NCBI GenBank assembly: GCA_964345775.1
Contig: CAYFSO010000002.1
Location: 15,679 to 79,678, forward strand
Reading direction: 5' to 3'
Length of the DNA stretch: 64,000 nucleotides
From: an uncultured Leptospiraceae bacterium
GTDB taxonomy: Bacteria > Spirochaetota > UBA4802 > UB4802
The position numbers and the translations under genes were made by a program. The notes beneath the pieces were generated by a model. That model did no database searches and had not been told where the DNA came from. It worked only from the letters and a program-made list of their open reading frames with translations. Position 1 is the first letter of the stretch; each line of letters opens with the position of its first letter. Below, in pieces: positions 3,191 through 58,658 of the stretch.

Positions 3191-3198
3191 AAGGAGGT

Positions 3199-4323: not shown

Positions 4324-4682
4324 GATTCAGGCTTGGCGAAAAAAGAGAGTATAGAGCGGTTTCCTTCAAGTCACTGCTTCCATCTGTTATTCATGATTTT
4401 GATCTTGACGATGAATACATACTCGGGCAGGTACAGGTCATCTGGCCCGAGGTTGTTGGAGAGATAATTGCAACCCATTCTTTTCCAAAAAAGATATTGA
4501 ATGGGATACTGTACATAAGTGTTGATCATCCGGTGTATGCTAACGAGATAGGAATGATACAGAACAGTATACTTGAGTCTATACGGGAAACACATAGGCT
4601 GGTAATGATAAAGAGTATACGGACAGATATTGAAAAGAATAATGTCAGATCAAGACCTGTGAAAGGATATAAAAAGGGGTAG
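4320..4682 (+). CDS. DUF721 protein (DciA-like predicted helicase loader)
   Basis: 120 aa. The start overlaps the recF stop (ATGA). Conserved DUF721 pattern (W.E.VG..IA.HS.P..L.NG.L.I.V....) and typical location between recF and gyrB. Confidence 0.7.
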   Translation: MRFRLGEKREYRAVSFKSLLPSVIHDFDLDDEYILGQVQVIWPEVVGEIIATHSFPKKILNGILYISVDHPVYANEIGMIQNSILESIRETHRLVMIKSIRTDIEKNNVRSRPVKGYKKG

Positions 4683-4684
4683 AC

Positions 4685-6824
<2,140 letters not shown>

Positions 6825-6867
6825 TATGGGTAATATAATAAAATAATCATGTTGGAGTATAAGAGTC

Positions 6868-43752: not shown

Positions 43753-45249
43753 CTATATATATTTTGGCTCCTTGTAGGAGTGCATGTCATGAACCCCGCC
43801 TTCTATCTGTGCTGACATTGATCGCATCTCAAATCGCAGTTCATTGGAGTGTAGCTTCTGGTGCAGAAGCGATACGCTACTGGTTCCTATGTCCTGAAAA
43901 GAATGTTTTAATCCCTGAAAAATGTATGGTAGATAGTCAAGCAGTGACCCCTTGTCTACAACGGCACCCGAAACACCCTGGGCTACCTTGATCTTGGATT
44001 CCTCGGCGAAATATCTCTTTGAGCCGCCTTTTTCCATTGCCTCAATTGATGCCATGCCACGGTATCTTTTCAGGCGGATACCGTTTTCATAAAAGTATTC
44101 ACCCGGGGCTTCCTCGGTACCGGCAAGCATGGATCCCATCATAACGGCAGAAGCGCCAATGGAAAGGGCCTTTGCAATATGACCGATATTGGCAACACCA
44201 CCGTCTGCCACAACGGGAATATCGTGCTTTCGTGCGTAGCGGGCACAGCGGTATACAGCCGTTGCCTGTGCGCGGCCAACTGCCATGGTGGTTTGCGTAG
44301 TACATATTGATCCTGGCCCCATGCCGATCCTGAGCGAATCAGCACCCGCCTTGATGAGATTTTCACACTGTTCTTCTGAAACAACGTTGCCAGCCATTAC
44401 ATCAATTTCGGGATAGGACTTTTTAATATACTTGATCATTTCGATCTGGTAAATGGAATTTCCCTGGGCCGAGTCGATGACAACAAGGTTTACACCTGCC
44501 TTTGCCAGTTCATGCAGCCGTTCCCTTGATTCGTCCTTGGTAGAGATGGCAGCGCCAACCATTAGCTGTTTTCGTGCGTCTTTTGAGGCACATGGGTATT
44601 CCCTGTTGGTGAGCAGGTCGTTCCGGCTCATAAGAGATACAAGGTGCCCGTTTTCGTTTATGATCGGCAGTTTTCCTTTCTTCGAATTTTTTAATATATC
44701 ATTTGCTTCGAAAAGTGTAACACCCTCGTGGGCCGTGAGAAGGTCGGTTGTCATAACCTCCCGTATCTGTTTGGACCTGTCATGCTCAAAATCAATGTCC
44801 CGGTTGGTAACGATACCGATCAGCTTTGAATAGAGATTCCCATCCTCGGTAATTGGAATACCAGAAAAACCATACTCATCTTTTATCCTGTCTATGTCCT
44901 GTATGGTATGCTGGGGTGAAAGAACAACAGGGTCCATGATGAAACCATTCTCATAACGTTTTACCTTTCGAACCTCGTCCACCTGTTCGTCGATGGAGTT
45001 GTTATAATGGATAATTCCGATACCACCAAGAAGCGAAAGAGTAATGGCCATCCTTGATTCTGTTACCGTGTCCATGGGACTTGAAATAACGGGCCGTTTG
45101 ACAATTATATTACGGGATACCCGTGACTCAAGATCAACCTCTTCTGGATTGAAGTCAATAAACCCCGGTAAAATTATGAAATCGTTGTACGCGATACCAT
45201 GTACTGTATCGAAGAGTTCCTGTGCGCTGAATCCGTCTTTTTTTGTCAT
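43753..45249 (-). CDS. guaB: IMP dehydrogenase (with CBS pair)
   Basis: Catalytic loop [23 protein letters not shown], tandem CBS domains. Start at the internal MTKKDGF. Confidence 0.95.
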
Positions 45250-45496
45250 TGTTTGCTCCTGTTGATAGAATAATAGCAATTGGGGAGTGCATCTTTGTCA
45301 AGCAATTACAAGATTGTCTCACGATTTTATATAAATGTAGCTGTTTATTGGCATCTTTCAACAAGAATTTTCATTAATATGAGCTGAGAAATTCATAATG
45401 GCACAGGTAATTTTACTTGCCATGTACATATTGAAAATGTCAATATAGATGAAGTGTTATTCAACAGGGAATGCGTATTTGAGCAGGAGGGGCAAC

Positions 45497-45856
45497 ATGA
45501 AAACCTGTAAGCGATGTGGCCAGTGCTGCCAGGATGTAAGGCTTGCAGAGCCTCCTGATCTCCTTGAAAAGGCATACCGTTACTGGCGAAAATCCAAAGA
45601 GATCGATCCTTCTTTTTCAGAGATATACCTGATCTATCCAATGCTTGTATTCAAGTACGAGGACCAGTCAGAGGATCTTCCATACCATTATTCGTGTAAA
45701 CATTTCTTAATGGATATTGATGGCAAACCGGGGTGTTCAATTTATGAAATACGTCCGCGAATGTGCAGGGATTTTCCCTATTACGATGAGGTGGAACACC
45801 TGAACAGGGATGAACCCCTGAGTCCATACAGTGGTTGTGGCTATAACGAGGGTTAG
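45497..45856 (+). CDS. YkgJ-family CxxCxxCC metal-chelating (Fe-S/Zn) protein
   Basis: N-terminal CKRCGQCCQ exactly matches the YkgJ-family CxxCxxCC motif. About 120 aa. Confidence 0.6.
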   Translation: MKTCKRCGQCCQDVRLAEPPDLLEKAYRYWRKSKEIDPSFSEIYLIYPMLVFKYEDQSEDLPYHYSCKHFLMDIDGKPGCSIYEIRPRMCRDFPYYDEVEHLNRDEPLSPYSGCGYNEG

Positions 45857-46954
45857 ATGATGGAAGTGGTGATAACTGGAGCCGCCTTTTTCGGCAGCAT
45901 GCTGTCATTCCTTATCGCGATGGGTCAGTTGGTGGTTACCTACAGGAGACTGGAGAATATTAACCTGGCCTTCCTTTTTACCTGTGTGGGGATCGTTCTT
46001 GTGCAGTACGGTTTTATGCTGAATAATACTGTTTCTCAAGTACCCGGGCTTGTATCGTTTCACCTGACCATTCTTTACCTCCTTGGACCGTTATTGTATT
46101 ATGCCTATTACCTGGTTATGCGATTCGAGGATGTTCTGCCCCTTTCCAAGCTACTGTACATGATGCCGGCTGTTTTTGCGCTGATTCTGGATCTATGGTT
46201 CTTAGGCAAACCTGTATTGTACCGCGAAATGATCATAGGTGAAATGTTCAGAAACGATGTTTCAGATATGGTGATGATCATTCGTGTTCTGATACTGGGG
46301 GCAGCTGTGCAGGCTGCATTGTACCTGGGGTTACTCTTAAAGAATATACTCATCTTCTGGAGATTCAGGGATTATTCTGCCATAACCACCATAACGCTGA
46401 TTTATATTGTAATATCAACGGTATCTCTTTTGCTCATAGCTGCAGCATTCATGTTCGGCTCGTTGGTCGTGTTACAGGTAAGCGTGGTATTCATTACCCT
46501 GCTTTTGATGGGTACGTACCTTGTGGGTCAGAGACACCCTGAATTTCTCCAGGTGCTTATCAAGGAGGCCAGGAAAAAGAGGTATGAAAGATCACTTTTA
46601 AATGGCTATGCCACTGATGAGTTGTGCTCACGTTTGCAGCACCTGATGGATGCCGAAAAGGTGTACGCCTGCGAAGATATAACATTGAAACAGCTTGCAG
46701 AGGAACTGGAACTTACCTCGCATCAATTGTCACAGCTGCTAAATGAAAATTTGAACATGAACTTTAATACCTTCGTCAACCAGTTCAGGATCCGTGATGC
46801 GAAACGCATGCTGGTTGAAGAACCGCAAAGATCCGTGTTGTCAATTGCTTACGCGGTAGGGTTCAATTCCAAGTCTTCCTTTTACGATGCGTTCTCTCGA
46901 TTCACCGGAAAAACGCCACAAAAGTACAGAAGGGACAATCTAACCGGTAGGTAA
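45857..46954 (+). CDS. Membrane-anchored AraC-family transcriptional regulator (6-7 TM helices plus C-terminal AraC HTH)
   Basis: Hydrophobic N-terminal 230 aa. C-terminal AraC signature (LSIAYAVGFNSKSSFYDAFSRFTGKTPQKYRR). Confidence 0.7.
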   Translation: MMEVVITGAAFFGSMLSFLIAMGQLVVTYRRLENINLAFLFTCVGIVLVQYGFMLNNTVSQVPGLVSFHLTILYLLGPLLYYAYYLVMRFEDVLPLSKLLYMMPAVFALILDLWFLGKPVLYREMIIGEMFRNDVSDMVMIIRVLILGAAVQAALYLGLLLKNILIFWRFRDYSAITTITLIYIVISTVSLLLIAAAFMFGSLVVLQVSVVFITLLLMGTYLVGQRHPEFLQVLIKEARKKRYERSLLNGYATDELCSRLQHLMDAEKVYACEDITLKQLAEELELTSHQLSQLLNENLNMNFNTFVNQFRIRDAKRMLVEEPQRSVLSIAYAVGFNSKSSFYDAFSRFTGKTPQKYRRDNLTGR

Positions 46955-47160
46955 TTATAAATCTGGTCGAAGAGTGCCTGTGCGCGTGGTAAAAAATATA
47001 TATAATGACATTGTGCAAAAACCATGTAGTTATTTAAAGACACCTTTTTTTGTGTATTAATTGAAAAATGGGGCACAATATATATATACGTATTAAAGGT
47101 TTTAATCATTAACGCTGCTGTTGCATGGTTTTGCTGTAAGAACTTCCTGGAGGATACCAT

Positions 47161-47676
47161 ATGGGAATTCTTTTTTACGCATTGATCAGCCTGATCTCTT
47201 ACCTGGTATTGACTGCCGGTTCAGGGGATGTTTTTATGCTTTGGTCCATCGAAGAACTGGTTGCAGGTGTGGTAATCAGCATGTTCCTGGGGTTTGTCTG
47301 TCACAACATAATTCCCAGACCCGTGAACGTCCAGGCATTTAATCCTCTCAGGTGGATCCTGGTCCTTCTGTATGTTGTCGGGCCATTCTTTATGATGCTG
47401 ATTGTTGCGAATGTTGAAGTAATTTACAGGGTACTTTCCGGAAAGATCAATCCTGCCATCGTGAAAGTTGAAACCGGGCTGAAAAGTGAAACCGGTGCCT
47501 ATATACTTTCTAACTCCATCACCCTTTCTCCAGGTACGCTCACCATAGAGTTGGAGCCTGATACACACGTATTATACATTCACTGCCTTAACTGGAAAAA
47601 GGAAAAAGGTGAAAAGGCGGAGCCCGGGGACGTATCAGGTATATTGCATTTTTTCATTAAGAAGATTTTCGGGTAA
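47161..47676 (+). CDS. Mrp/Mnh antiporter subunit E-like (MbhA-like)
   Basis: First gene of the Mbh-type operon. 171 aa, TM helices, MnhE-like. Confidence 0.65.
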   Translation: MGILFYALISLISYLVLTAGSGDVFMLWSIEELVAGVVISMFLGFVCHNIIPRPVNVQAFNPLRWILVLLYVVGPFFMMLIVANVEVIYRVLSGKINPAIVKVETGLKSETGAYILSNSITLSPGTLTIELEPDTHVLYIHCLNWKKEKGEKAEPGDVSGILHFFIKKIFG

Positions 47677-47691
47677 AAGGGGAGATATTTC

Positions 47692-47952
47692 ATGGAAACC
47701 ATGCTTATAGTATCGGTACTTCTGTTAAGCATATACATACTACTGATCGTGATTCGAATTGCCTTCAGTCATAATGTACCGGAAAGGATCGTTGCCCTTG
47801 ACACCATCAACACCATGATCATAACCATGATGGTTGTACTTGGAGCGGTAGAGCGGAAGGCTCTTTATATCGATATTGGCATTGTATATGGTATTATTTC
47901 ATTTATTGGCACGCTTTATATTGCCAGATACCTGATTGATGTGGGGAAATAA
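47692..47952 (+). CDS. Mrp subunit F-like (MbhB-like)
   Basis: 86 aa, three TM helices, MnhF-like. Confidence 0.65.
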   Translation: METMLIVSVLLLSIYILLIVIRIAFSHNVPERIVALDTINTMIITMMVVLGAVERKALYIDIGIVYGIISFIGTLYIARYLIDVGK

Positions 47953-48305
47953 TGGATACAGCTATTTATATTCTGCTTGGAATAGGATTGTTCGTGAACG
48001 CCATGAGTATCGTGGGAATTCTGCGATTTCCTGATATGTATACCAGGCTGCATGCTGCAACCAAGACAACAACCTTTGGCAGTATTTTCATGGTGATCGC
48101 GGTGATCCTTCACAGCATAATACTGTCAGATGCTGCCAGTACCGTTATTATAATACACTCTGCCGTAGCCCTCCTGGTTGTCATTTTCACCAACCCCATC
48201 AGTGCGCATGCCATAGCCCGCGCGGCCCTGATTGAAGGCATAAAGCCTGCTGGCGCACAGATCAACGAGTTTGACGAGAAAAAGAAGAGGGAGGCAAAAG
48301 GATGA
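47952..48305 (+). CDS. Mrp subunit G-like (MbhC-like)
   Basis: 117 aa MnhG-like. Start overlaps the upstream stop. Confidence 0.65.
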   Translation: MDTAIYILLGIGLFVNAMSIVGILRFPDMYTRLHAATKTTTFGSIFMVIAVILHSIILSDAASTVIIIHSAVALLVVIFTNPISAHAIARAALIEGIKPAGAQINEFDEKKKREAKG

Positions 48306-48547
48306 TCTCATCGGTAATATTTATCATGTTGTCAATAGTTATGATTGTTACAGCCGTTCTCAGCCTTTACTTTCGCGACCTCCTTGCAAGCGTGGTGAGT
48401 TTCTCGGTTATGTCGCTGGTGTTGACGGTAATGTTCTTTCACCTTGACGCTCCCGATGTTGCAATCGCCGAGGCTGGAATCGGTGCTGCGCTGACAGTGT
48501 GTGTGTTTGTGATCGCAATAAAGATGACCAGGAGAAGAGAAGAATGA
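48302..48547 (+). CDS. Small membrane subunit (MbhD-like)
   Basis: 81 aa, 2-3 TM helices. Translationally coupled (ATGA overlaps). Confidence 0.5.
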   Translation: MISSVIFIMLSIVMIVTAVLSLYFRDLLASVVSFSVMSLVLTVMFFHLDAPDVAIAEAGIGAALTVCVFVIAIKMTRRREE

Positions 48548-49374
48548 GACTGGCAAGTTTTTTATCACTGGTATTGATAGCCGGGTTCCTGTTTGTGGGC
48601 ATACTCAGGCTGCACCCGGTTGGTGAGCCGCTGGGTAATCCCCGTGTTTTTGAAGACAGGAGCAGCCAAATTACAGACATCAAGAATGTTGATACCATGG
48701 ATGATTATTACCTCAGGAACGGGCAGACCGAAACAGGCTCCAACAACCTTGTTGCAAGTGTTGTCTTTGATTACCGCAGCTTTGATACGCTTGGTGAAGC
48801 GACCGTGCTTTTTATCGTTGTTTCAAGCATATCCATGCTTCTGTTTACCCTCGTTAAGCGAAGGGGTACAGAAACAAGCGGTGTTAGCCGGATGAGAGAA
48901 TTCCCGGATGGTGTGTCACGCGTTATCACCTTCAGTTCTTTTCTTCTGTATATCTTGATTGTTACATTTGGTATATACCTGGTTGTGCATGGTCACATTT
49001 CTCCTGGAGGGGGATTCCAGGGTGGTGCTGTCATGGCTTCGGCCACTGCGCTGCTCTTAATAAGCTCACTTATAACCAGGAACGTGCAGAAAACCAAAAA
49101 GGTATTCTCATTTTTTGAGTCATTCGGGCTTACACTGTTTATCGGCATCGGTTTTGCAGGGATCGGGGTATCTTTTCTTTTCAATTTCCTGGCAAATGTT
49201 GACCCCACATTTTTTGGTAGAACGATCGGGTTTGGCCCAAACCCTGGCTATCTCGTGTCCGGCGGCACCCTGCCCCTGTTGTCCCTGGCAATTGGTATGG
49301 AGGTGTTTTTCGGCCTGAGTATCATACTGGTTACCATGTATCACGCTGCAAAAGACGAAAAGGCTGGAGAATGA
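48544..49374 (+). CDS. MnhB-domain membrane subunit (MbhE/F-like)
   Basis: About 276 aa polytopic protein, MnhB-like, in the Mbh gene order. Confidence 0.6.
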   Translation: MRLASFLSLVLIAGFLFVGILRLHPVGEPLGNPRVFEDRSSQITDIKNVDTMDDYYLRNGQTETGSNNLVASVVFDYRSFDTLGEATVLFIVVSSISMLLFTLVKRRGTETSGVSRMREFPDGVSRVITFSSFLLYILIVTFGIYLVVHGHISPGGGFQGGAVMASATALLLISSLITRNVQKTKKVFSFFESFGLTLFIGIGFAGIGVSFLFNFLANVDPTFFGRTIGFGPNPGYLVSGGTLPLLSLAIGMEVFFGLSIILVTMYHAAKDEKAGE

Positions 49375-49377
49375 ACT

Positions 49378-49737
49378 ATGTCGGATTTCTTTCTATACGT
49401 GACGGTTGTGCTGCTGATCTTTTTCGGACTGGTGGCCATTCTCTACAAGAGAAACCTTATCAAGTTAGTTATTGCCCTGAACGTTATACAGGCAGGGGTA
49501 AACCTGCTTTTCATAACCCTTGCCTACAGGCCTGATGGGACTGCACCGATTTTTACCCTTGCCCCGGCGGTAGAGGAATTGAAGATGGTACTGCCAACGC
49601 CACAGGCACTCATCCTGACCAATATTGTTATAGGGTTTGGAACCACCGCCCTTATGCTGACACTGGCCATCCTGACCTATCAGAATAATCGTACACTGGA
49701 TATACGCAAGTTAAGAGGTGTAGAGAACAATGACTGA
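49378..49737 (+). CDS. MnhC/NuoK-like subunit (MbhG-like)
   Basis: 119 aa, three TM helices, NuoK/MnhC pattern. Confidence 0.7.
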   Translation: MSDFFLYVTVVLLIFFGLVAILYKRNLIKLVIALNVIQAGVNLLFITLAYRPDGTAPIFTLAPAVEELKMVLPTPQALILTNIVIGFGTTALMLTLAILTYQNNRTLDIRKLRGVENND

Positions 49738-51446
49738 TCATATCCCGGTATTAATAATAGCCCTGCCGCTTCTAACCGCTTTTATGCTGCCTATTGCGGG
49801 CATGATAAGTACACGCCTTCGAAATATACTGGTATTTCTGGTCATCGTGGCGGTTAACCTGATGCTTCTTTCTCTTGTGCAGCGGGTTTCCATGGGGGGA
49901 GAGGTGCTCCATTACGTTGTTGGCGCGGCGAACCCCCAGCAGGTAATAATGGAGGGGCTTGATTTTCCAATACGGATTGTCCTGAAAATAGACGGGTTTT
50001 CTCTTTTCATGGCACTGATTTCAGGGGTCATTACCCTGGTTGTTTTCCTGTTCTCATGGAGTTATATACAGGAAGGGGAGCGCAAAAATTATTACCTGCT
50101 GCTGATGCTGCTGATCCTTGTGGGAATGCTGGGTATCGAGTTTACCAATGACCTTTTTAATCTTTTTGTTTTCCTGGAAGTTTTATCAATTTCGTCCGCG
50201 GCCCTGGTGGCTTATCGAACCGAGCGCAAGCATCCGCCGTATGCAGGATTCAAGTACATGCTGGTCAGTGCCATAGCTACAAGTTTCCTGCTGATGGGTA
50301 TCGCCCTCTGCTATGCCCAGTACGGCTCGTTTAACATGGATTACATCCATGGCATGATGCAATACAGCATGCTGGATAAGATGGCAATGGTCTTCATGCT
50401 GGTTCCACTTGCCATGAAGGCCGGGGCCATACCAATGCACATGTGGGTACCCGATACCTATTCGGAGGCACCGGCACCAATCAGTGCCATGTTGAAAACT
50501 GCCAGCATGGCAAGCCTGTATGCTCTATTCAGGCTGTCTTTGTCCCTGTTCGGTAACCCCCTTGAAGGCCCCGGGATGAACTATCATACACTTGGGTGGT
50601 TTGTCATCGTCCTCGGGGTGTTGTCAATGTTCATAGGGGTAACCATGGCACTTGTGCAGCACGACGTGAAGCGCCTGATGGCATTTCACGCGGTGTCCCA
50701 GACAGGATACATGCTGCTTGGTGTTGGCGTGGGTATCGCGGTACATGCAAACGCCGACGATGGCAGTGCCTTCAACCTTTTTGGAAAGGTGGCCATGATG
50801 GGCGGGATCTTTCACATGATGAACCATGCCTTTTACAAGGGACTACTGTTCCTTACCTCGGGAGTGATGGTACGGAGGTTCGGGACCCGTGGGTATCGCG
50901 GTACATGCAAACGCCGACGATGGCAGTGCCTTCAACCTTTTTGGAAAGGTGGCCATGATGGGCGGGATCTTTCACATGATGAACCATGCCTTTTACAAGG
51001 GACTACTGTTCCTTACCTCGGGAGTGATGGTACGGAGGTTCGGGACCCGTGACCTGAACAGGATGATGGGGATGGCCCACCGGGATACGTTTACGACGAT
51101 TGCATTTATCATCGGGGCCCTGGCCATTGCGGGTATTCCTCCTTTCAATGGGTTTTCATCGAAAATACTTCTTTATGAATCCGTGTATCGTTTCAGCCCC
51201 GTATTGTCAATTATCGCCATTTTTGTTTCGGTGCTGACACTGGCCTCATTCGTAAAAGTGTTTTACAGCGCCTTCCTGGGGCCCGAGAGAAAGGACATGA
51301 TCGTTGATGAAACCCCGGTTTCACCCGGTATGACGCTGGGGATGGGAATACTGTGCGTGCTGGTAGTTGGGTTCGGGCTGTTCCCGGACCTGGTTGTGGG
51401 GATTATCGTAGAACCGGCTGTCAATAGCCTGGTAACAATACTGTGA
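49730..51446 (+). pseudogene. MnhD/NuoL-like proton-pumping antiporter subunit (MbhH-like), frameshifted by a 160-bp tandem duplication
   Basis: ORFs 49730..51052 and 50889..51446 are the two halves of one NuoL/M/N-family gene (conserved MMNHAFYKGLLFL motif) in different frames. A perfect 160-bp repeat at the junction explains the shift. Confidence 0.8.
50728..51051 (+). repeat. Perfect direct tandem duplication, 2 x 160 bp (unit about 50731-50890 repeated at 50891-51050; boundaries ambiguous by up to 3 nt)
   Basis: Read directly: gggtatcgcggtacatgcaaacgccgacga...ggaggttcgggacccgt occurs twice consecutively with no mismatch. Confidence 0.95.
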
Positions 51447-51464
51447 CAGGGGTGATGTGCTAAA

Positions 51465-51818
51465 ATGTTTACAGTGGAAAAGATATTTACTCAAAACACC
51501 GGGATAATCTGGTATCCCCTCCTGCTGATAGCAATATTCCTGCTGCTTGTGTTTATTCTGTGGGTATGGGGTCGGTATTATTTCAGGAATGATTACAATG
51601 AAAAAACAGCACAGGTAAAACCCTTTAACTCGGGAAACCTTGAGGAAATAGATTACTCAATCAGGTCGGGGAACCTTTACTGGGGCTTCAAGAAGGCACT
51701 TGACGGTTTTTATAACTGTATGGAATCACTGCATACCGGCGACCTGAATGATTACATGGTCTGGCTGTTCCTTTCCATCGGTGTAGTGCTTCTCCTGGTC
51801 AGTGGAGGATTATTATGA
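51465..51818 (+). CDS. Small membrane subunit (MbhI-like)
   Basis: 117 aa with two TM helices, at the Mbh operon position between the antiporter and hydrogenase modules. Confidence 0.5.
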   Translation: MFTVEKIFTQNTGIIWYPLLLIAIFLLLVFILWVWGRYYFRNDYNEKTAQVKPFNSGNLEEIDYSIRSGNLYWGFKKALDGFYNCMESLHTGDLNDYMVWLFLSIGVVLLLVSGGLL

Positions 51819-52270
51819 AAAAGAAACTGCTGAATACCTCGTTTAAACGGTCGTTGTGGGCATTCCACATGAACACCGGTTCCTGTAACGCCTGTGATAT
51901 CGAGATACTGGCAACCCTGATGCCACGATATGATGCTGAACGATTTGGCATCAAGCTGGTGGGTACCCCCCGGCACGCTGACGTGCTGCTGGTAACCGGT
52001 ACGGTAACCGAGAAGATAAAGGACCGTGTACTGCGTGTGTATGAACAGGTGCCCGATCCGAAGCTGGTAATAGTAATTGGCGGATGCGGTTCCACCAAAG
52101 GTGTATACCAGGAGTCCTATGCCATGACGGGACCAATAGATAATTATATTCCCGTTGACGTGTACATCCCCGGCTGTCCACCCAGGCCTGAGGCCATACT
52201 GTACGGGGTTGCCAGGGCATGGGAAAAGCTTGAATTATTGATGAAAAAAGGAAAGAAGAATGCATCCTGA
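51815..52270 (+). CDS. [NiFe]-hydrogenase small subunit, NuoB-like (MbhJ-like)
   Basis: [4Fe-4S] ligands in NuoB spacing (GSCNACD...GGCGSTKG...PGCPP). Confidence 0.9.
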   Translation: MKKKLLNTSFKRSLWAFHMNTGSCNACDIEILATLMPRYDAERFGIKLVGTPRHADVLLVTGTVTEKIKDRVLRVYEQVPDPKLVIVIGGCGSTKGVYQESYAMTGPIDNYIPVDVYIPGCPPRPEAILYGVARAWEKLELLMKKGKKNAS

Positions 52271-52733
52271 TGATATAGTAGCAAGGTTCAGCAGTGAACT
52301 GAAAGGGCATTTTACCGCCTCAAGAATACAGGAAACACCCGAGGGCAGGGATGGTTTAAATAAAAGGACCAGGCTGTGGCTCAACGTGGACCGTGACGTA
52401 TTTCACCGGGCTGTGGCTCTCTTGAAAGAATTCGGTCCACCCCATATTTGTACTCCAATGGCATCAAAAGAATACGATCAAACAATGGAGCTCATTTATC
52501 CGTTCACGTTGAACTATGCCGCGGAACGATACGGTGAACTGGTTGTGATAATCGTGGTAGATATACCCAGGGATGACATGCGCATCAGGAGTGTCAGCGA
52601 CCTGGTACCGGGTATACTGTACATGGAACGTGAAACAATGGAAATGCTTGGCGTCATTATTGAAGATATCCCTGATCCAAGGCGCCTTTTTACTACTGAC
52701 GGCCTGGGTGATTCTTTTCCCATGCGGGACTGA
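52260..52733 (+). CDS. NuoC-like 30-kDa subunit (MbhK-like)
   Basis: 157 aa NuoC/HycE-N-like fold, located between NuoB-like and NuoD-like genes. Confidence 0.75.
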   Translation: MHPDDIVARFSSELKGHFTASRIQETPEGRDGLNKRTRLWLNVDRDVFHRAVALLKEFGPPHICTPMASKEYDQTMELIYPFTLNYAAERYGELVVIIVVDIPRDDMRIRSVSDLVPGILYMERETMEMLGVIIEDIPDPRRLFTTDGLGDSFPMRD

Positions 52734-52775
52734 CGGGAACTTTTGCACTAATAACTGTATGGAGATGTTGTAACC

Positions 52776-54014
52776 ATGGAAAAATCAATAACCTATCCTT
52801 TACAGATAGGGCCTACACATCCGGCATTCAAGGAACCAGTACGATTCTCTTTCAGGATGGACGGGGAGCGAGTATCGGATGTTGATATAGACCTGGGGTA
52901 TACCCACAGGGCCATCGAGGTAATTTCGAAAGAACGTAATTTCATCCAGACCATTTATCTGCTGGAACGGATATGTGGTATCTGCTCTGTGTCACATCCC
53001 CTGGCGTATTGCCTGGCAGTGGAGGAGGTGGCAGGGATGGAGGTCCCTCCCCGTGCAAAGTATATACGTACGATAGTGGGTGAGCTCGAACGCCTTCATT
53101 CGCACCTGTTGTGGGCAGGGGTTGCCGCCCACGAGATCGGGTTTGACACCCTCTTCCTCTATACATGGAATATCCGCGAGAAGGTGCTTGACTGTCTGGA
53201 ACAGTTCACCGGTAACAGGGTTAATTACGCGCTGCTTACTATTGGTGGAGTACGCCGGGATATTACGGAAGAGGTTTTCCCCGTAATCGAGGAGACGCTG
53301 GAATACTATACCGAACTGTTTCAGCGTGCATCAGAGATACTGCTTGATGACCAGAGCATACGTTTCAGATGTGAAGGGACGGGTATACTCACATATGAAC
53401 AGGCTGTCGCGTTATGTGCGGTGGGACCCAACGCACGTGCCTCGGGACTGGCGAAGGATGTCAGGGTGGATTACCCGATACTGGCGTACCCGGACATGGA
53501 CTGGCTTAAGCCGGTAACCCCCAGGGACATTGGAAAGGAACCGGTTGGTGACGTGTATGACCGCATGGTGGTCAGGGTGATGGAGATCAGGCAGTCGGTG
53601 GATATTATACGATACTGCCTGGATAACCTGCCTGACGGCCCAATCGCGCTGGAAAAAGGTGCCATTAAGATTATAAACAAGCTTAAGAAAGTGCAGGGAG
53701 AAGGTATAGGCCGTTACGAGGCCCCCAGGGGAGAGGTGGCCCATTACGATATTCTTGATCTGAACGAGTGCCCGGTGCAGATGAAGGTAAAGGCACCAAC
53801 GTATTCCAATGCCTTCACATGGGTACCCATGCTGCAGGGGACGGAAATAGCGGATATCCCCATCGTTATCGCATCAATTGACCCCTGTGTAGCCTGTGCT
53901 GACCGCATGACCATACTCAGGAATGACGGTTCAGTGGAAGCATTGAACGCAGAGTATTTACACAACCTGAGCGTTAAAAAGATGAAGGAGGTTAGGTCCC
54001 GATGCAGTGGTTGA
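52776..54014 (+). CDS. Group-4 [NiFe]-hydrogenase large subunit, NuoD-like (MbhL-like)
   Basis: N-terminal Ni-Fe ligand motif RICGICSVSH and C-terminal DPCVACADR, followed by a 34-aa C-terminal extension. Confidence 0.92.
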   Translation: MEKSITYPLQIGPTHPAFKEPVRFSFRMDGERVSDVDIDLGYTHRAIEVISKERNFIQTIYLLERICGICSVSHPLAYCLAVEEVAGMEVPPRAKYIRTIVGELERLHSHLLWAGVAAHEIGFDTLFLYTWNIREKVLDCLEQFTGNRVNYALLTIGGVRRDITEEVFPVIEETLEYYTELFQRASEILLDDQSIRFRCEGTGILTYEQAVALCAVGPNARASGLAKDVRVDYPILAYPDMDWLKPVTPRDIGKEPVGDVYDRMVVRVMEIRQSVDIIRYCLDNLPDGPIALEKGAIKIINKLKKVQGEGIGRYEAPRGEVAHYDILDLNECPVQMKVKAPTYSNAFTWVPMLQGTEIADIPIVIASIDPCVACADRMTILRNDGSVEALNAEYLHNLSVKKMKEVRSRCSG

Positions 54015-55036
54015 TATATATATTTGTCATACCTGTAACGGTGCTTATTGCGGGCGGGATAATCGGACTGTACGCGAAGGGGATAGACCGCAAGTTGGCC
54101 GCCTATTACCAGTCCCGTATCGGCCCGCCGGTACGACAGCCGTTTTATGATATCAGCAAGCTGATGCAAAAGCAGACCATAATACCTGAAAATGCGGTTG
54201 GGTGGATATTCAGGGGAGCGCCTTACATGGCACTTGCTTCCAGTGTTATTTTGCTTGTATACGTGCTTGTCCCGTACTTCGCGTGGATCGGTGGTGCCGA
54301 TTTCTTTTTCAGCAACAGTGGTGATATTATCCTGGTGCTGTACCTTTTGATGATCCCATCAATAGCACTGGTTGCCGGAGGGTTCGCATCGGGCTCACCA
54401 TATGCAACTGTTGGGGCACAGCGTGAAATGGTTATACTCATGTGTGTAGAACTGCCTCTGGCGGTAATCGCGGTTACGTTCGCCTGGCGTTTGTCTAACG
54501 TTGCACCCGCTTTACCGCCGTTTTCTCTTGTTACCATGACAAGTCATCCGTTATGGACGGGCATGGGGCCCTTCGGCATACTGGGAGGAATGCTGCTGGC
54601 ACTGTCAATGGCGGTGGTGATACCGGCCGAACTCGCAAAGATACCCTTTGACCAGGCGGAAGCGGAGACCGAGATAGCCGAGGGGCTTCTTGCAGAATAT
54701 TCCGGTAAATACCTGGCCTTTTACCAGGTAGCTGATGGTGTAAAGTCGCTCGCGGTAATTTCTCTGGCGGTGATATTGTTTTTTCCCCACGGATTTACGC
54801 AGATGACGGGTTACGTGGTGCAGCCGGGCGGGATGGATATTACCCTCCTGGTTGATACGGGCCTATTCATGGCGAAGGTGTTTGCTGTCTATTTCGTCTC
54901 GGTTACAACCGTACGAATAGCCATGGCGAGGTTCAAAATTTCACAGGTTGCAAAACTGTTTTTGATCACCATAACCGTTATGTGTTTGGCCGGTTACGTG
55001 TTGATCACGCTTGATCCGGTTATTGCAACACTTTGA
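54002..55036 (+). CDS. NuoH-like membrane subunit (MbhM-like)
   Basis: 344 aa polytopic, NuoH/HycD pattern. Confidence 0.8.
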   Translation: MQWLIYIFVIPVTVLIAGGIIGLYAKGIDRKLAAYYQSRIGPPVRQPFYDISKLMQKQTIIPENAVGWIFRGAPYMALASSVILLVYVLVPYFAWIGGADFFFSNSGDIILVLYLLMIPSIALVAGGFASGSPYATVGAQREMVILMCVELPLAVIAVTFAWRLSNVAPALPPFSLVTMTSHPLWTGMGPFGILGGMLLALSMAVVIPAELAKIPFDQAEAETEIAEGLLAEYSGKYLAFYQVADGVKSLAVISLAVILFFPHGFTQMTGYVVQPGGMDITLLVDTGLFMAKVFAVYFVSVTTVRIAMARFKISQVAKLFLITITVMCLAGYVLITLDPVIATL

Positions 55037-55054
55037 TTCACGAGGAGCGCAACA

Positions 55055-55489
55055 ATGCTTGGTGCAGTATATAAAGTAATTGAACAGTTTTTTTCAAACA
55101 AATCAACCAATCTTTTCCCGGTAAAATATATTCCCGAATCAACCGGGGATATGCTTCAAGATGGCGGGATCAACCCACCGGTACCTCTACCGGAAGGCAT
55201 AAGGGGCCGGCTTGCGTATGATTATGATACCTGTATAGGGTGTGCCATGTGTGAAAAAGTGTGCCCTGCCAGGGCCATTGAGCTTTATCCCGTAAAGGCG
55301 GGTGAAAAGAAATCAAAGCGTATAGTAATATTTCTTTCACGGTGTACCTATTGTGGCGAATGTGTTGATATCTGTCCCAAGAACTGTATAACCATGGAAA
55401 AATTCGTGTTCATGGCCGGTTACGATAAATACGGGGATGAAATGATTATCGGATCTGCTGAACGGGTGAAGAACGAGATTGAAGATTAA
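55055..55489 (+). CDS. NuoI-like 2x[4Fe-4S] ferredoxin subunit (MbhN-like)
   Basis: Two CxxCxxCxxxCP motifs (CIGCAMCEKVCP, CTYCGECVDICP). Confidence 0.85.
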   Translation: MLGAVYKVIEQFFSNKSTNLFPVKYIPESTGDMLQDGGINPPVPLPEGIRGRLAYDYDTCIGCAMCEKVCPARAIELYPVKAGEKKSKRIVIFLSRCTYCGECVDICPKNCITMEKFVFMAGYDKYGDEMIIGSAERVKNEIED

Positions 55490-55500
55490 GGCTGAAAGCT

Positions 55501-55764
55501 GTGTTCAGAAAAAAGAAAATTCGAGTTACCATAAAGCTATACAGCGGATTACATAAGGATGCCGGGTTGAAAGAGTATGATCCTTACAGTGGCATTGTGC
55601 AGGAAGTGAATTCCGGCACCAGGGTACGGAAAATTGTAAAGGAACTCGGCATCCCGCATCCATATTCACTGGCGTATTTTATAAACGGTGAACGTGTTGG
55701 TCTCTGGAAAAAGATGCATGATGGTGATGAGCTTTCCTGTTTCAGACCATCTGGCGGTGGTTGA
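55501..55764 (+). CDS. MoaD/ThiS-family beta-grasp sulfur-carrier-like protein with C-terminal Gly-Gly
   Basis: 87 aa ending ...DGDELSCFRPSGGG, the ThiS/MoaD pattern. Lies 12 nt after the mbhN-like stop. Confidence 0.55.
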   Translation: MFRKKKIRVTIKLYSGLHKDAGLKEYDPYSGIVQEVNSGTRVRKIVKELGIPHPYSLAYFINGERVGLWKKMHDGDELSCFRPSGGG

Positions 55765-55767
55765 GCT

Positions 55768-56499
55768 TCATAAAAGGTAATCATCCAGCCTGTGAGAAAG
55801 AGACCGGAATATATTGGTGCGCGCGTTCTTGTAAAGCCTGTCACAATGCTTCAACATTTCCTTCACATCCGATCTTTTCGTGTCTTTTTTATACGGGCAC
55901 TTGTTCTCGTACCCATTGAAATCTTTAAGGTTCCTGTACCAGATCACTTCCTTCTCGGAAAGATAGGCCAGGGGCCGTATTATTTCCAATTCCCCATCGA
56001 ATAATTCAAGACGTGGTGGCATGGTTGACATGTTCCCATGGTATACCATGTTCATAATAAATGTTTCCAGTATGTCGTCACGATGATGCCCAAAAGCGAT
56101 CTTTTTGCATCCAAGATCCCGGGCCAGAGTAAAAAGGGTTTTCCTTCTATGCCATGAACAAATAAAACAGGGTGTTTTGCTGGTATCGGAAAAATCCAGT
56201 GTAACCCGGCATACATGAAAATCTATGTTATAGGATTCGCAAAATCTTCCATAGTCTTCAACCTCGTCTCCACTGGTAAAATTGGTAACATGTACGTATG
56301 CAGTATGAATGGTATAGTTCACGGGCATATGAATGCGTCGTTGTGCAAGGGCGTCAAGCAGGACCATGGAGTCCTTCCCCCCTGAAAAAGCGACCAGCAC
56401 CGAATCGTCTGCCTTGATCATGGAGTAATCGTTTATTGCGCTGCCAACTTTTCTGCGAAGGCGCCCAAGGTACTTTTTTTCTTTATTATTTTTCATCAA
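55768..56499 (-). CDS. ttcA: tRNA 2-thiocytidine(32) synthetase TtcA
   Basis: PP-loop SGGKDS, GHHRDDILET, MPPRL, IRPLAYLSEKE and CxxC/C cluster ligands, all close to E. coli TtcA. Confidence 0.85.
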   Translation of the reverse strand: MMKNNKEKKYLGRLRRKVGSAINDYSMIKADDSVLVAFSGGKDSMVLLDALAQRRIHMPVNYTIHTAYVHVTNFTSGDEVEDYGRFCESYNIDFHVCRVTLDFSDTSKTPCFICSWHRRKTLFTLARDLGCKKIAFGHHRDDILETFIMNMVYHGNMSTMPPRLELFDGELEIIRPLAYLSEKEVIWYRNLKDFNGYENKCPYKKDTKRSDVKEMLKHCDRLYKNARTNIFRSLSHRLDDYLL

Positions 56500-56680: not shown

Positions 56681-57037
56681 ATGGCGAAGGCTATGATCGT
56701 GGATGATTCGAAGTTCATGAGGCGCATTATCAGGGAAACCCTTGAAGAAGGCGGTCATGAGATAGCGGCTGAAGTTGATAATGGTGTTGATGCGATAACC
56801 ATGTACAACGACATGAAACCGGATTTTGTCACAATGGATATCACCATGTGGGGAAAGGATGGATTAATGGCAATAGAGGAGATATCAGAGAAATTTCCTG
56901 ACGCGAGAATTGTGGTCATATCCGCACTTAACGAAAAAACGTTACGGCTCAACGAGAAGAATATCAACGCAAGGGCATTCCTTACAAAGCCCTTTGATAA
57001 ACAAGAACTTCTTGATGTTGTCAACAAGATCATATGA
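56681..57037 (+). CDS. Single-domain response regulator (CheY-like receiver)
   Basis: 118 aa with DD...D...T...K receiver residues (IVDDS, TMDITM, K in LTKPF). Confidence 0.85.
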   Translation: MAKAMIVDDSKFMRRIIRETLEEGGHEIAAEVDNGVDAITMYNDMKPDFVTMDITMWGKDGLMAIEEISEKFPDARIVVISALNEKTLRLNEKNINARAFLTKPFDKQELLDVVNKII

Positions 57038-58092
57038 CCTCGAACCAGTATATACAGCTGTATCAAATCAATACCGTACCCGGTGAAGCATACCTGTTAA
57101 ATGGCGGGCAGGTATTTTTTTTTGTATCTGAAAGCGACAAATACATTATAAAAGGGAAGAATGTAATTGTTGGTGCAACAGAGCTCATTTTAAAAGAGAA
57201 AGACCCCTCCATCTCCAGGCTGGAAACCGCAATTTCCACAAGGGATGCTTCCATTAAAAAGATTACACAGGAGCGCTTTTTACAGGGCCTTAATGTATTC
57301 TCATTTCTTCTAAACGTATCAATGGTTATTGCCAAACAGGTGGTGCTAACCAATAATATCATGAACAATAATGTATCAGGCCTTGATCCCGACCAGGCAA
57401 GGGACAAGGATAACTGCATTGCGTATTTTCGCATAGTTTCAAAACTAAGAGATGAATATGATAAACGAAGGCTTCCCTGGTTGAAAGAGCTTGTCTCCAG
57501 GTTTGAAACCAGCCTGACCTACAAGAAAGGTGAAGCATTCAGCAGAACTGATGAACCGGTATTGATATCAACTCCGCATGAGCTTTCTGATAACATGATA
57601 GAGTACAATACCGGATCATTTATATTCGAAGAAGAAGACATCGGAGATGAGATGTACATTTTGGAATCGGGAACGCTGGATGTGTTGATTCACGGTAAAA
57701 AAGTAGCGACGTTACAGGACAAGGGTTCTGTAATCGGGGAAATAGCCATGTTGCTTGGACAGAAACGAACAGCATCACTGCAGGCACGTAACAACGTTGT
57801 GGTAACGCGTGTAACAAAAGAGAAACTGAAAAGTACTTCAGGGCAGGAGGGGGTACAGGTATTGAAATCAGTTGCAATTTCTCTTGCAATGAAACACAGT
57901 AACAACATTATTCGTATTCACGAGATAAATGAAAGCCTTGCTGAAAAGTATTTTGGCGGGGATGCCGAAGAGAAAGTACCGGGATCTCTTGACCAGTCAA
58001 AGAACTACACGGAACTATTATCTCTTAAAAACGCGGTTGAAAAAATTGCCCAGCAGAAGGATGCTGATTACCTTGCTGACATCCTTCGCTGA
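57034..58092 (+). CDS. Protein with cyclic-nucleotide-binding domain(s), no DNA-binding domain
   Basis: C-terminal cNMP-binding fold (GDEMYILESGTLDV...GEIAML...RTASLQA) and a degenerate N-terminal copy. Start overlaps the CheY stop (ATGA). Confidence 0.6.
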   Translation: MTSNQYIQLYQINTVPGEAYLLNGGQVFFFVSESDKYIIKGKNVIVGATELILKEKDPSISRLETAISTRDASIKKITQERFLQGLNVFSFLLNVSMVIAKQVVLTNNIMNNNVSGLDPDQARDKDNCIAYFRIVSKLRDEYDKRRLPWLKELVSRFETSLTYKKGEAFSRTDEPVLISTPHELSDNMIEYNTGSFIFEEEDIGDEMYILESGTLDVLIHGKKVATLQDKGSVIGEIAMLLGQKRTASLQARNNVVVTRVTKEKLKSTSGQEGVQVLKSVAISLAMKHSNNIIRIHEINESLAEKYFGGDAEEKVPGSLDQSKNYTELLSLKNAVEKIAQQKDADYLADILR

Positions 58093-58118: not shown

Positions 58119-58658
58119 TTAAGTAAGCGCGATTTCACCCTTTTTAAGGGATTTCAGCCAGTTCATTTCTGCTTTCAGGTGGTTCTCAAGGTATGAGTAT
58201 ACATGAACCTGGGAATTATCTTCGGGATCCTTCTGTTCTTCAGCGATCTTTTCCATGATAATATCCATTTTTTCCTTGATAAATTCCATCCTGTCCTCAA
58301 CGAACTGTTCTTTCTGGTCATCACTGAGACTGTTCAGGAACATCAGTACGATATCAATATCAAAATGGATCATGTTATGCTCGAAATACTGCTTGAGCAT
58401 TTTCTTGTAGTACTTTCTCCCTGCGGGCATGATCTGGTAAATGTAACGTTCGGGATTACCGCCTTCCTTTTCAGTCCCGACTTTTTTGACCCATCCGTTC
58501 TCTACGGATTTCTTGATGGCATAATAGATTGAACCGAATTTGATATCTACGTAGTCTTCCAGTCGTTCGACAATCTTTTTCTTGATTTCATAACCGTAGA
58601 GGTTTTCTTCCATGAGCAGTCCGAGTATGGTGATTTCAATTTTCATGGTGTACCTCAC
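58119..58658 (-). CDS. PadR-family transcriptional regulator with extended C-terminal domain
   Basis: N-terminal winged HTH with PadR signature (LLMEENLYGYEI...GWV). Confidence 0.75.
   Translation of the reverse strand: MRYTMKIEITILGLLMEENLYGYEIKKKIVERLEDYVDIKFGSIYYAIKKSVENGWVKKVGTEKEGGNPERYIYQIMPAGRKYYKKMLKQYFEHNMIHFDIDIVLMFLNSLSDDQKEQFVEDRMEFIKEKMDIIMEKIAEEQKDPEDNSQVHVYSYLENHLKAEMNWLKSLKKGEIALT

Follow-up and report, generated by a model that had tools for sequence, protein, structure and literature searches.

The closest described counterparts of the gene examined here are MoaD-like proteins associated with tungsten enzymes. Linkage of a MoaD gene to genes for tungsten aldehyde:ferredoxin oxidoreductases (AOR family, AFOR) is a known arrangement, termed a "tungsten cofactor biosynthesis" neighbourhood by Iyer, Burroughs and Aravind in 2006 (PMC1779556), and the MoaD-like aorD and aorE of Aromatoleum aromaticum are putative factors in the maturation of the tungsten cofactor (PMC6365974). 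MoaD and MoeB genes are rarely adjacent (PMC1779556). Another relevant system is TtuB of Thermus thermophilus, the GG-ended carrier in the synthesis of 2-thiouridine at tRNA position 54, in which TtuA takes sulfur from thiocarboxylated TtuB (TtuB-COSH) via its cluster (PMC7138817). Archaeal SAMP1 and SAMP2, which are both ubiquitin-like modifiers and sulfur carriers, form a third point of comparison.

We analyzed a stretch of 64,000 nucleotides from an uncultured Leptospiraceae bacterium (hereafter, the window), in which a small gene of this general type lies at the 3' end of a [NiFe]-hydrogenase operon. We use the label Ubl for the 87-aa ubiquitin-like protein that it encodes (Table 1). Like the AOR-linked MoaD proteins and AorD/AorE, Ubl is a stand-alone protein of approximately 85 aa with a free Gly-Gly terminus and a predicted MoaD-like beta-grasp fold, and it has relatives encoded upstream of AOR genes; the likeness is one of arrangement and fold. 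The initial annotation of the window offered several readings of this gene, including a sulfur relay, a role in handling hydrogenase cofactors, and coincidental proximity. In this report, we compare the locus with its relatives and weigh these and other explanations.

Table 1. Features of the window surrounding Ubl (position 1 is the first nucleotide of the window)
Feature	Position	Strand	Basis
IMP dehydrogenase (IMPDH), left-hand block anchor	43753..45279	-	Pfam, synteny
CxxCxxCC gene (PF03692, YkgJ-like)	45449..45856	+	Pfam, tblastn synteny
AraC-family regulator, head of hydrogenase region	45857..46954	+	annotation, synteny
Mrp-Mbh-type group-4 [NiFe]-hydrogenase cluster	47161..55489	+	Pfam and NCBIfam
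Hydrogenase large subunit, both CxxC pairs (RICGICS, DPCVAC)	52776..54014	+	
NuoH-like	54002-55036	+	hydrogenase cluster
MbhN/NuoI-like, 2x[4Fe-4S]	55055-55489	+	hydrogenase cluster
Ubl, MoaD/ThiS-family ubiquitin-like (beta-grasp) sulfur-carrier-type gene	55501..55764	+	ORF, Pfam, AlphaFold2, Foldseek, orthologues, dN/dS
Convergent TtcA-family PP-loop gene, 243 aa	55768..56499	-	Pfam ATP_bind_3 4e-18, NCBIfam TtcA
Response regulator, right-hand anchor	56681-57037	+	
cNMP-binding protein, right-hand anchor	57034-58092	+	
PadR, right-hand anchor	58119-58658	-	

The Ubl gene and its family

The initial annotation described an 87-aa open reading frame that ends in PSGGG, begins 12 nt past the stop of an mbhN-like gene in the orientation of the hydrogenase operon, and stops 3 nt from the stop of a convergent tRNA-thiolation gene. 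The coordinates agree on every point: the distance from the mbhN stop is 11-12 nt, and the two convergent stops are separated by 3 nt. Translation would begin at a GTG codon that has AAGG approximately 10 nt upstream, and the C-terminus, ...CFRPSGGG, is directly followed by TGA.

Full-length orthologues of Ubl (84-89 aa) were recovered from 37 other loci, so the reading frame is conserved in relatives. In each of them the Gly-Gly pair immediately precedes the stop codon, as it does in the window (38 of 38 loci), and G86 and G87 are the sole invariant columns in an alignment of 52 family sequences. Pairwise dN/dS values range from 0.06 to 0.16. The conservation and the dN/dS values together rule out a chance open reading frame. 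Because of these values, the uniform Gly-Gly ending of the orthologues, and a beta-grasp model for which MoaD is the best match, we conclude that Ubl is a real gene under purifying selection. The terminal Gly-Gly is always free in this family, with no C-terminal extension.

Structure prediction agrees with the earlier suggestion of a GG-tailed, MoaD/ThiS-like beta-grasp protein. By using the 52-sequence alignment, AlphaFold2 modeled Ubl with beta-grasp topology (pLDDT 87.4, pTM 0.74). A Foldseek search of the PDB with this model yielded 27 matches at E<=1e-3, all in the ubiquitin-like beta-grasp class (MoaD, SAMP, SUMO and similar), and the top matches were MoaD2 (6jc0_A, TM 0.74), the MoaD-like protein 1vjk of P. 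furiosus, and SAMP1. As modeled, then, Ubl has a beta-grasp fold that is closest to MoaD. When the family profile was compared with solved structures, 1vjk was again the best match (E 5.7e-6), with SAMP2 (5lda_B) at E 4e-4 and TtuB at E 0.02; E. coli MoaD matched over the C-terminal 30 residues only (E 0.08).

Matches to curated models are more diffuse. The window protein passes the Pfam ThiS model (PF02597) marginally, its 22.8 bits lying just above the gathering cut-off of 22.5, and 33 of the 52 family members match this model at E<=0.01 (best 7e-9). At the same threshold, the "MoaD family protein" model TIGR01687 is matched by 20 members, and PRK11130 is matched by 5 of the 52. Ubl of the window itself falls below the MoaD-level models, with 14.9 bits for TIGR01687, where the cut-off is 49.5, and no match to TIGR01682. 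Thus, Ubl resembles E. coli MoaD, which is the small subunit of molybdopterin synthase, and the archaeal-type proteins of TIGR01687 in fold (6jc0_A, 1vjk) and in a C-terminal ...DGDE..F.P..GG motif, but it differs from MoaD proper in its score far under the TIGR01687 cut-off and in having no MoaE gene nearby. Weak N-terminal matches to Hfq (E 0.01-0.04) were dismissed as noise, given scores well short of the threshold and the beta-grasp fold of the protein. The subfamily has the signature KLYSGL...NGxR.G...DGDE.sC..PsGG-COOH and comprises approximately 100 clusters at 50% identity (E<=1e-3), or 38 at E<=1e-10. Most of its members carry no Pfam call in their source databases.

The similarity to SAMP1 and SAMP2 raises the question of a generalist of the SAMP/TtuB/Urm1 type, which would supply several sulfur acceptors (for example, in molybdopterin synthesis and tRNA thiolation) and perhaps also be conjugated to proteins. 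Both SAMPs rank high by fold and by sequence (structures 3po0 and 4hro are near the top of the Foldseek results), one family member matches Pfam SAMP2, and two match NCBIfam SAMP1. Moreover, the gene persists in a locus that has no AFOR gene (L028) and in one that has no TtcA-like gene (L011), as a carrier with multiple clients would. However, the sequence similarity to the SAMPs is weak, Ubl is a bacterial protein, and no gene for an E1, a JAMM/JAB peptidase or an E2-like protein is present near any family member examined. We regard a generalist role as decidedly unlikely.

Synteny and the hydrogenase cluster

We compared the window with approximately 50 related loci from metagenome-assembled genomes (MAGs). 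Those that share its synteny block are from Spirochaetota (Leptospiraceae-like), and the block has the order IMPDH, CxxCxxCC gene, Ubl, TtcA-like gene (in some lineages), response regulator, cNMP-binding protein and PadR. In addition to the subunits listed in Table 1, the hydrogenase cluster of the window contains MnhE/G/B-like, NuoK/L-like, NuoB and NuoC genes, with Mrp-type subunits upstream of the large subunit, and by its sequence it is a group-4 Mbh-like [NiFe]-hydrogenase. Its MbhH-like gene contains an apparent 160-nt duplication (50728-51047).

Wherever the sequence extends past both ends of the hydrogenase region, the CxxCxxCC gene and Ubl border it; they are approximately 9.6 kb apart in the window. 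In relatives that lack the hydrogenase, the CxxCxxCC gene is directly upstream of Ubl and co-directional with it, with a spacer of approximately 9-120 nt (L009, L011, L013, L018, L033). The AraC-family regulator is restricted to the sub-lineage of the window (L003, L004, L010), and its full-length homologues (36-41% identity) are found elsewhere upstream of Ubl-AFOR pairs. Compared with their counterparts in L009/L013, Ubl and the TtcA-like protein of the window are each 43-47% identical, and the response regulator and PadR are 69-81% identical.

Given this arrangement, Ubl and the CxxCxxCC metal-binding protein might constitute a two-gene functional unit into which the hydrogenase was placed. 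The two genes are close and co-directional in five distinct lineages, and they bracket the hydrogenase region wherever both of its ends are visible. However, the pairing occurs in one block of related genomes, in which IMPDH, the response regulator, the cNMP-binding protein and PadR are equally conserved, and family members located at AOR genes or elsewhere have no CxxCxxCC gene within 5 kb. Also, the two genes are well separated in the window, and neither has evidently been lost. A functional unit of this kind is thus very unlikely.

The initial annotation suggested that Ubl could act with the hydrogenase itself, serving the Mbh-type complex in a sulfur relay or in the handling of Fe-S or [NiFe] cofactors. 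The gene does follow the operon's orientation as its last member, and a sequence scan found no terminator-like or promoter-like site between mbhN and Ubl, with counts around the junction and at the operon head at the level of shuffled sequence, so that the scan indicates no more than the lack of an obvious terminator. The arrangement is retained in approximately 15 loci, and in a second hydrogenase sub-clade (L001, L006, L049) mbhN and Ubl overlap by 23 nt, which suggests translational coupling. From gene layout, co-transcription of Ubl with the hydrogenase is therefore plausible and probable.

The distribution of the linkage argues against a functional tie. All hydrogenase-linked copies of Ubl fall in a single monophyletic clade (in a neighbour-joining tree of 87 residues without support values), and orthologues in the same block persist with no hydrogenase in five distinct lineages (L009, L013/14, L018, L011/12/31/32 and L033/34). 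Other family members adjoin AOR-family genes or are located elsewhere. Moreover, we know of no step in hydrogenase maturation that uses a MoaD/ThiS-type carrier. We consider a hydrogenase-specific role to be extremely unlikely.

Rather, gene order across these loci marks the hydrogenase cluster as a variable neighbour of Ubl that is outside its conserved unit. Because relatives retain Ubl with or without the hydrogenase and with or without the TtcA-like gene, its location behind mbhN seems to be fortuitous, and the coincidental proximity that the initial annotation also considered is the favored reading. That Ubl can be separated from these neighbours follows under either direction of change, be it insertion of the hydrogenase in one lineage or its deletion in others. 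The hydrogenase block has a GC content of 0.48, compared with 0.44-0.45 in its flanks, a difference that is too small to argue for recent transfer.

The convergent TtcA-family gene

The gene that converges on Ubl had been called a clear TtcA. It does belong to the TtcA family: the protein has an SGGKDS PP-loop, a CxxC motif and a third cysteine, the TtcA model NF007972 is its best match, and its close homologues are named "TtcA family protein" by NCBI. The word "clear" is an overstatement, however, because the match, at 188 bits, is short of the cut-off of 272. With the TtuA model the score is 66 bits (cut-off, 450). Alignment with the TtuA protein PH0300 shows conservation of the PP-loop and the three cluster cysteines, and it extends over residues 29-251 of 310 only. 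Neither an N-terminal nor a C-terminal zinc finger is present in the TtcA-like protein. Over its N-terminal 100 residues this protein contains no cysteine, and a single one follows the CPY motif.

The association resembles the TtuB system in that a GG-ended beta-grasp carrier is encoded beside a PP-loop [4Fe-4S] thiolase of the Ncs6/TtuA/TtcA superfamily. By analogy, a Ubl thiocarboxylate could donate sulfur to the cluster of the TtcA-family enzyme, which would make 2-thiocytidine or another thionucleoside in tRNA. Several observations are consistent with this possibility. A TtcA-like gene is present at the Ubl site in three of the four block variants, and the tail-to-tail pair, with a gap of 2-40 nt, occurs in the window, in the approximately 15 hydrogenase loci and in the hydrogenase-less L009, L013/14 and L018. 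The two proteins diverge at a similar rate, the TtcA-like protein retains the PP-loop and cluster cysteines that it shares with TtuA, and TtuB is among the fold matches of Ubl (Foldseek rank 33).

Other observations point away from such a relay. The genes are convergent and therefore not co-transcribed, and their adjacency is confined to one synteny block and one lineage. Two hydrogenase-less lineages (L011/12/31/32 and L033/34) have no TtcA-like gene at the Ubl site although Ubl is intact, and in L005/L023 and L036 the TtcA-like gene appears to be split by a frameshift. The closest non-spirochaete TtcA homologues (40-42% identity, on Bacteroidota-like contigs L046-48) have no GG-ended small open reading frame nearby. 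Finally, the enzyme is of a short TtcA type that lacks the zinc-finger domains of TtuA, and the family profile fits MoaD-type proteins far better than TtuB. A sulfur relay to this neighbour is therefore weakly supported. We judge a TtuB-like donor role to be unlikely, although it merits some weight.

A more specific version would have this Leptospiraceae-like lineage recruit Ubl as the thiocarboxylate donor for the short, zinc-finger-less TtcA-type thiolase. Transcription of the carrier from the Mbh promoter would in that case couple tRNA thiolation to hydrogen metabolism. This scenario is distinctly improbable. If true, it would represent the first TtcA that depends on a ubiquitin-like carrier, and a real coupling would matter more because, to our knowledge, no TtcA-type enzyme has a ubiquitin-like sulfur donor.

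AOR-linked relatives and the cofactor pathway

Outside the synteny block, ten distinct loci (L015/16, L017, L019, L030, L037-45), which represent at least four operon types, have a Ubl-family gene directly ahead of an AFOR gene, at a distance of 30-260 nt. The three AFOR proteins that were compared directly (L015, L017, L019) are 31-44% identical to each other. The AOR-linked Ubl proteins are 29-49% identical to the window protein; for example, P0112 from L017 is 48% identical. Adjacency to AOR-family genes is the only association of Ubl that recurs outside the block, and the initial annotation had not taken it into account. The window and block copies differ in this respect, as tblastn searches with three AFOR queries found no AOR-family gene in the window, and none at a distance of up to 10 kb from Ubl in the block loci.

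We favor, at about an even chance, the explanation that Ubl is a functional MoaD-type carrier for the synthesis of molybdopterin or tungstopterin that is fixed in the block, and that its link to the hydrogenase arises from gene order. According to this proposal, a MoeB/ThiF-type E1 encoded at an unlinked site would adenylate the free C-terminal glycine of Ubl, which would then be converted to a thiocarboxylate. The sulfur would be passed to an acceptor, most likely a molybdopterin synthase of the MoaE type, to make the dithiolene of the molybdenum or tungsten cofactor. Ubl is a fixed resident of the Spirochaetota (Leptospiraceae-like) block, and in the lineage of the window the Mbh cluster occupies the short spacer between the CxxCxxCC gene and Ubl, so that transcription from the hydrogenase promoter probably continues into Ubl. 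Such read-through would be a by-product of gene order and not a sign of functional partnership.

The acceptor pathway is inferred, because no gene for an E1, MoaE or AOR-family protein lies within 72 kb. Specifically, Pfam searches of essentially every long open reading frame in the 64-kb window and in 8 kb upstream of dnaA revealed no AOR-family, MoaE, MoaA/C, MoeA or MoeB/ThiF gene, and at the block loci none is present in the 10 kb around Ubl. The AOR-linked loci that were examined likewise have no gene for MoeB, MoaE or a pyridine-disulfide oxidoreductase, so a connection to the cofactor pathway depends on analogy with the published AOR-MoaD clusters. On that analogy, molybdenum or tungsten cofactor synthesis is the most likely acceptor pathway for Ubl. 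A search for Moco or Wco riboswitches upstream of family members, conducted at Rfam gathering thresholds on 13 loci and the window, returned only a 5S rRNA and a tRNA.

These results correct an annotation made by neighbourhood. When a hydrogenase operon ends in a gene for a GG-tailed carrier, a new link between sulfur or cofactor metabolism and the hydrogenase suggests itself; synteny instead shows a hydrogenase situated in the spacer between a CxxCxxCC gene and Ubl, and outside this setting the family of the carrier is associated with tungsten AOR enzymes. The analysis also delimits a small MoaD-like subfamily, not named before, with a clear signature, and the Ubl loci provide a clean natural experiment on which of its neighbours are dispensable.

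The Ubl gene and its family

The small GG-tailed ubiquitin-like (MoaD/ThiS-type) ORF, Ubl, was found exactly where the initial annotation had placed it and with the same anatomy. The gap between the mbhN-like gene and Ubl is 11 bases, and the stop codons of Ubl and the convergent PP-loop gene are 3 nt apart.

Coordinates of features in the window
Feature	Position	Strand	Remarks
Origin region	433-9351		dnaA, dnaN, recF, DciA-like, gyrB, gyrA
IMPDH gene	43753-45279	-	
CxxCxxCC gene	45449-45856		
AraC regulator gene	45857-46954		immediately 5' of hydrogenase
AraC-MnhE intergenic region	46955-47160		AT-rich
Mrp-Mbh-type group-4 [NiFe]-hydrogenase cluster	47161-55489		complete; upstream of Ubl
MbhH-like gene, first part	49730..51052		440 aa
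MbhH-like gene, second part	50889..51446		185 aa
Tandem duplication, 160 nt	50728-50887 = 50888-51047		100% identity
NuoI/MbhN-like subunit gene	55055..55489		2x[4Fe-4S]; directly upstream of Ubl
Ubl ORF	55501..55764	+	GTG start; 87 aa, MFRKKKIRVTIKLYSGLHKDAGLKEYDPYSGIVQEVNSGTRVRKIVKELGIPHPYSLAYFINGERVGLWKKMHDGDELSCFRPSGGG, then stop
PP-loop protein gene	55768..56499	-	243 aa; convergent with Ubl
Flagellin-family gene	58901-59734		277 aa (Flagellin_N + Flagellin_C)

The ORF is conserved in relatives: 37 other loci encode full-length orthologues (84-89 aa), which without exception end in GG followed by a stop codon. Orthologue pairs exhibit dN/dS values of 0.06-0.16 (Nei-Gojobori). When 1.8 billion cluster representatives were searched exhaustively with HMMER, 100 clusters matched at E<=1e-3, of which 38 reached E<=1e-10; almost all are ~85 aa and match up to the final residue. 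Across a 52-sequence alignment, only the columns of the two terminal glycines are invariant.

The beta-grasp fold suspected from the sequence was correct. An AlphaFold2 model based on the 52-sequence alignment (pLDDT 87.4) has the order beta-helix-beta-helix-beta-beta-beta, and its top Foldseek matches in the PDB are mycobacterial MoaD2 (6jc0_A, TM 0.74), the P. furiosus MoaD-like protein 1vjk and SAMP1, with TtuB at rank 33. The window's Ubl passes the Pfam ThiS threshold marginally (22.8 versus 22.5 bits); this model matches 33 of 52 family members, and NCBIfam TIGR01687 ("MoaD family protein") matches 20 of 52. Among solved structures, the family profile scores best against 1vjk (E 5.7e-6), followed by SAMP2 (4e-4) and TtuB (0.02). 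Ubl leans toward MoaD rather than ThiS or TtuB.

Genomic contexts

Gene contexts were assessed at 49 loci by using tblastn with the window's protein panel and three AFOR (tungsten aldehyde:ferredoxin oxidoreductase) proteins, together with contig gene calls. The census yielded five contexts. The window's lineage consists of Leptospiraceae-like MAGs of the Spirochaetota.

Contexts of Ubl, with identity of their Ubls to that of the window (RR, response regulator; cNMP, cNMP-binding protein)
Context	Gene order	Loci	Identity
(a), two sub-clades	CxxCxxCC, [AraC], Mbh hydrogenase, Ubl, TtcA-like(-), RR, cNMP, PadR(-)	window and ~15 loci: L001-8, L010, L020-25, L029, L049	54-89%
(b), without hydrogenase	IMPDH(-), CxxCxxCC, Ubl, TtcA-like(-), RR, cNMP, PadR	L009, L013/14, L018	43-47%
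(c), without hydrogenase or TtcA-like	IMPDH(-), CxxCxxCC, Ubl, RR, cNMP, PadR	L011/12/31/32, L033/34	50-52%
(d)	Ubl immediately 5' of AFOR-family gene	ten distinct loci, at least 4 operon types	29-49%
(d)	epimerase, Ubl, AFOR, MFS transporter	L015/16	
(d)	usually AraC, then Ubl, AFOR, Fe-ADH, 180-aa protein, Fe-ADH	L017, L037-45	
(d)	ArsR, Ubl, AFOR	L019	
(d)	DUF362, Ubl, AFOR	L030	
(e)	Ubl adjoins methyltransferase	L026/27	
(e)	Ubl kept; FBPase and GPAT flanks as in L017; AFOR-ADH genes absent	L028	

Linkage to genes of the AOR family, to which AFOR belongs, is the only linkage that recurs in unrelated contexts. The AFORs of L015, L017 and L019, compared directly, share only 31-44% mutual identity. 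In loci with the spirochaete gene order of contexts (a) to (c), tblastn detected neither AFOR-family genes nor further proteins of the panel near Ubl.

Several observations concern individual loci. L017 and L028 carry sister Ubls between common flanks (a class-3 FBPase gene upstream and a GPAT-type acyltransferase gene downstream, on the opposite strand); in L017, Ubl is followed by AFOR, Fe-ADH, the 180-aa protein and a second Fe-ADH, none of which is present in L028. An AOR-ADH module has therefore been gained or lost beside a resident Ubl, mirroring the hydrogenase. The conserved 180-aa protein has no Pfam match (L038, 8370-8912; equivalents in L017, L037, L039, L043 and L045). At the very start of contig L035 (2-1078), the first ~78 residues of a Ubl member continue in frame as a phosphoglycerate-kinase-like ORF; this join is probably not a real fusion but the product of a chimeric or truncated assembly. 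The window's flagellin-family gene lies between PadR and RuvA; RuvA directly follows PadR in L001, L011 and L013, so this gene is another lineage-specific difference. The window begins with the chromosomal replication-origin region, and the hydrogenase block thus lies ~45-55 kb from dnaA.

Hydrogenase and TtcA-family neighbors

The hydrogenase cluster includes MnhE/G/B-like, NuoK/L-like, NuoB, NuoC and NuoH-like subunits, and its large subunit has both RICGICS and DPCVAC motifs. Scans reported no promoter-like site on the + strand in 54900-55500 and no terminator-like site in the mbhN-Ubl or Ubl-TtcA-like interval, and Ubl begins 23 nt before the end of mbhN in the second hydrogenase sub-clade. 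These observations, with the AT-rich AraC-MnhE region, make the hydrogenase promoter the probable source of Ubl transcription in the window's lineage.

The functional tie to the hydrogenase that had been considered is not supported by contexts (b) and (c), which keep Ubl without the hydrogenase, or by phylogeny. In a neighbor-joining tree (87 residues, without support values, and thus a coarse picture only), the hydrogenase-linked copies group as one clade, and AOR-linked copies are scattered, deepest branches included. Hydrogenase and Ubl are separable, whether by insertion or deletion, and a hydrogenase-specific role is extremely improbable. The CxxCxxCC gene and Ubl are ~9-120 nt apart in contexts (b) and (c) and flank a 9.6-kb AraC-plus-hydrogenase segment in the window; that Ubl is a partner of the CxxCxxCC protein is very unlikely.

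The perfect tandem duplication within the gene for the MbhH-like antiporter-type subunit causes a frameshift that breaks the gene in two; the orthologue is one continuous ORF in L003 (518 aa) and in L006 (513 aa). Either the assembly is at fault here or the duplication has recently inactivated the hydrogenase. The window's AraC regulator has full-length homologues (36-41% identity) directly 5' of Ubl-AFOR-ADH operons (L037-L040, L042-L045), with homology covering an N-terminal domain that Pfam leaves unannotated, and has no counterpart in the other hydrogenase sub-clade (L005-8). The same pair, AraC type and Ubl family, therefore brackets two different redox "payloads".

The convergent gene had been called a clear TtcA. 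Its best model is indeed the NCBIfam TtcA equivalog, and the motifs are present (PP-loop SGGKDS, CxxC (CFIC) and a third cysteine, CPY), but its 188 bits fall under the cut-off of 272. The SGGKDS and cysteine motifs align with P. horikoshii TtuA, [4Fe-4S] ligands included; both zinc-finger regions are missing from the protein, since the alignment reaches only from residue 29 to residue 251 of the 310-residue TtuA chain. NCBI names close homologues "TtcA family protein". The neighbor is a short-type TtcA-family thiolase with an inferred substrate position.

The suggested sulfur relay between these neighbors is weakly supported. Outside the spirochaete block, the nearest homologues of the TtcA-like protein are ~250 aa long with 40-42% identity, several of them named Bacteroidota TtcA by NCBI; on three long contigs with such genes, no small ORF ending in GG lies closer than 3 kb. 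Context (c) keeps Ubl without the TtcA-like gene; in L005/L023 and L036 this gene is apparently split by a frame change beside an intact Ubl, although assembly error is possible; and convergence makes co-transcription impossible. The adjacency therefore does not generalise, and is conserved no better than the flanking IMPDH, RR, cNMP and PadR genes. Ubl is unlikely to be the sulfur donor to the TtcA-like enzyme, and a Ubl-dependent TtcA is slightly less likely still. Of the earlier suggestions, the caveat of a coincidental proximity has the best support.

The two-piece, different-frame TtcA-like matches (L005, 10270-10999; L023, 3843-4572; L036, 160-878) suggest a frameshift or pseudogene, or possibly sequencing error. 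L005 and L023 encode identical Ubls and may stem from the same population.

Possible role of Ubl

MoaD-like proteins in AOR neighborhoods were previously proposed to make molybdopterin for the tungsten cofactor (Iyer, Burroughs, Aravind 2006, PMC1779556), and the aor operon of Aromatoleum aromaticum has two MoaD-like genes, aorD and aorE, encoding putative W-cofactor maturation factors (PMC6365974). The recurrent Ubl-AOR linkage agrees with this pattern. Our main explanation, held with middling confidence, is that Ubl is a MoaD-type carrier with the corresponding chemistry. An unlinked MoeB/ThiF-type E1 would adenylate its terminal glycine, which would be converted to a thiocarboxylate, and Ubl would then pass the sulfur on, most probably to a MoaE-type molybdopterin synthase. 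No E1, MoaE, or other Moco or AOR-family gene was found in the 64-kb window or in the 8 kb preceding its dnaA end; MoeB and MoaE are absent from the AOR-linked loci too, and no Moco riboswitch precedes any Ubl member.

Ubl outlasts each specific neighbor, namely AFOR (L028), the TtcA-like gene (context c) and the hydrogenase (contexts b and c), which favors a carrier with a housekeeping role or multiple clients over one neighbor's dedicated accessory. A generalist or SAMP-like carrier, as a rival to the MoaD-type reading, seems rather improbable. MoaD-like sulfur carriers with AOR-linked relatives are known; this Ubl member and its genomic position are new. If the organism makes no Mo/W cofactor, readings of Ubl as TtuB-like or as a modifier would gain.
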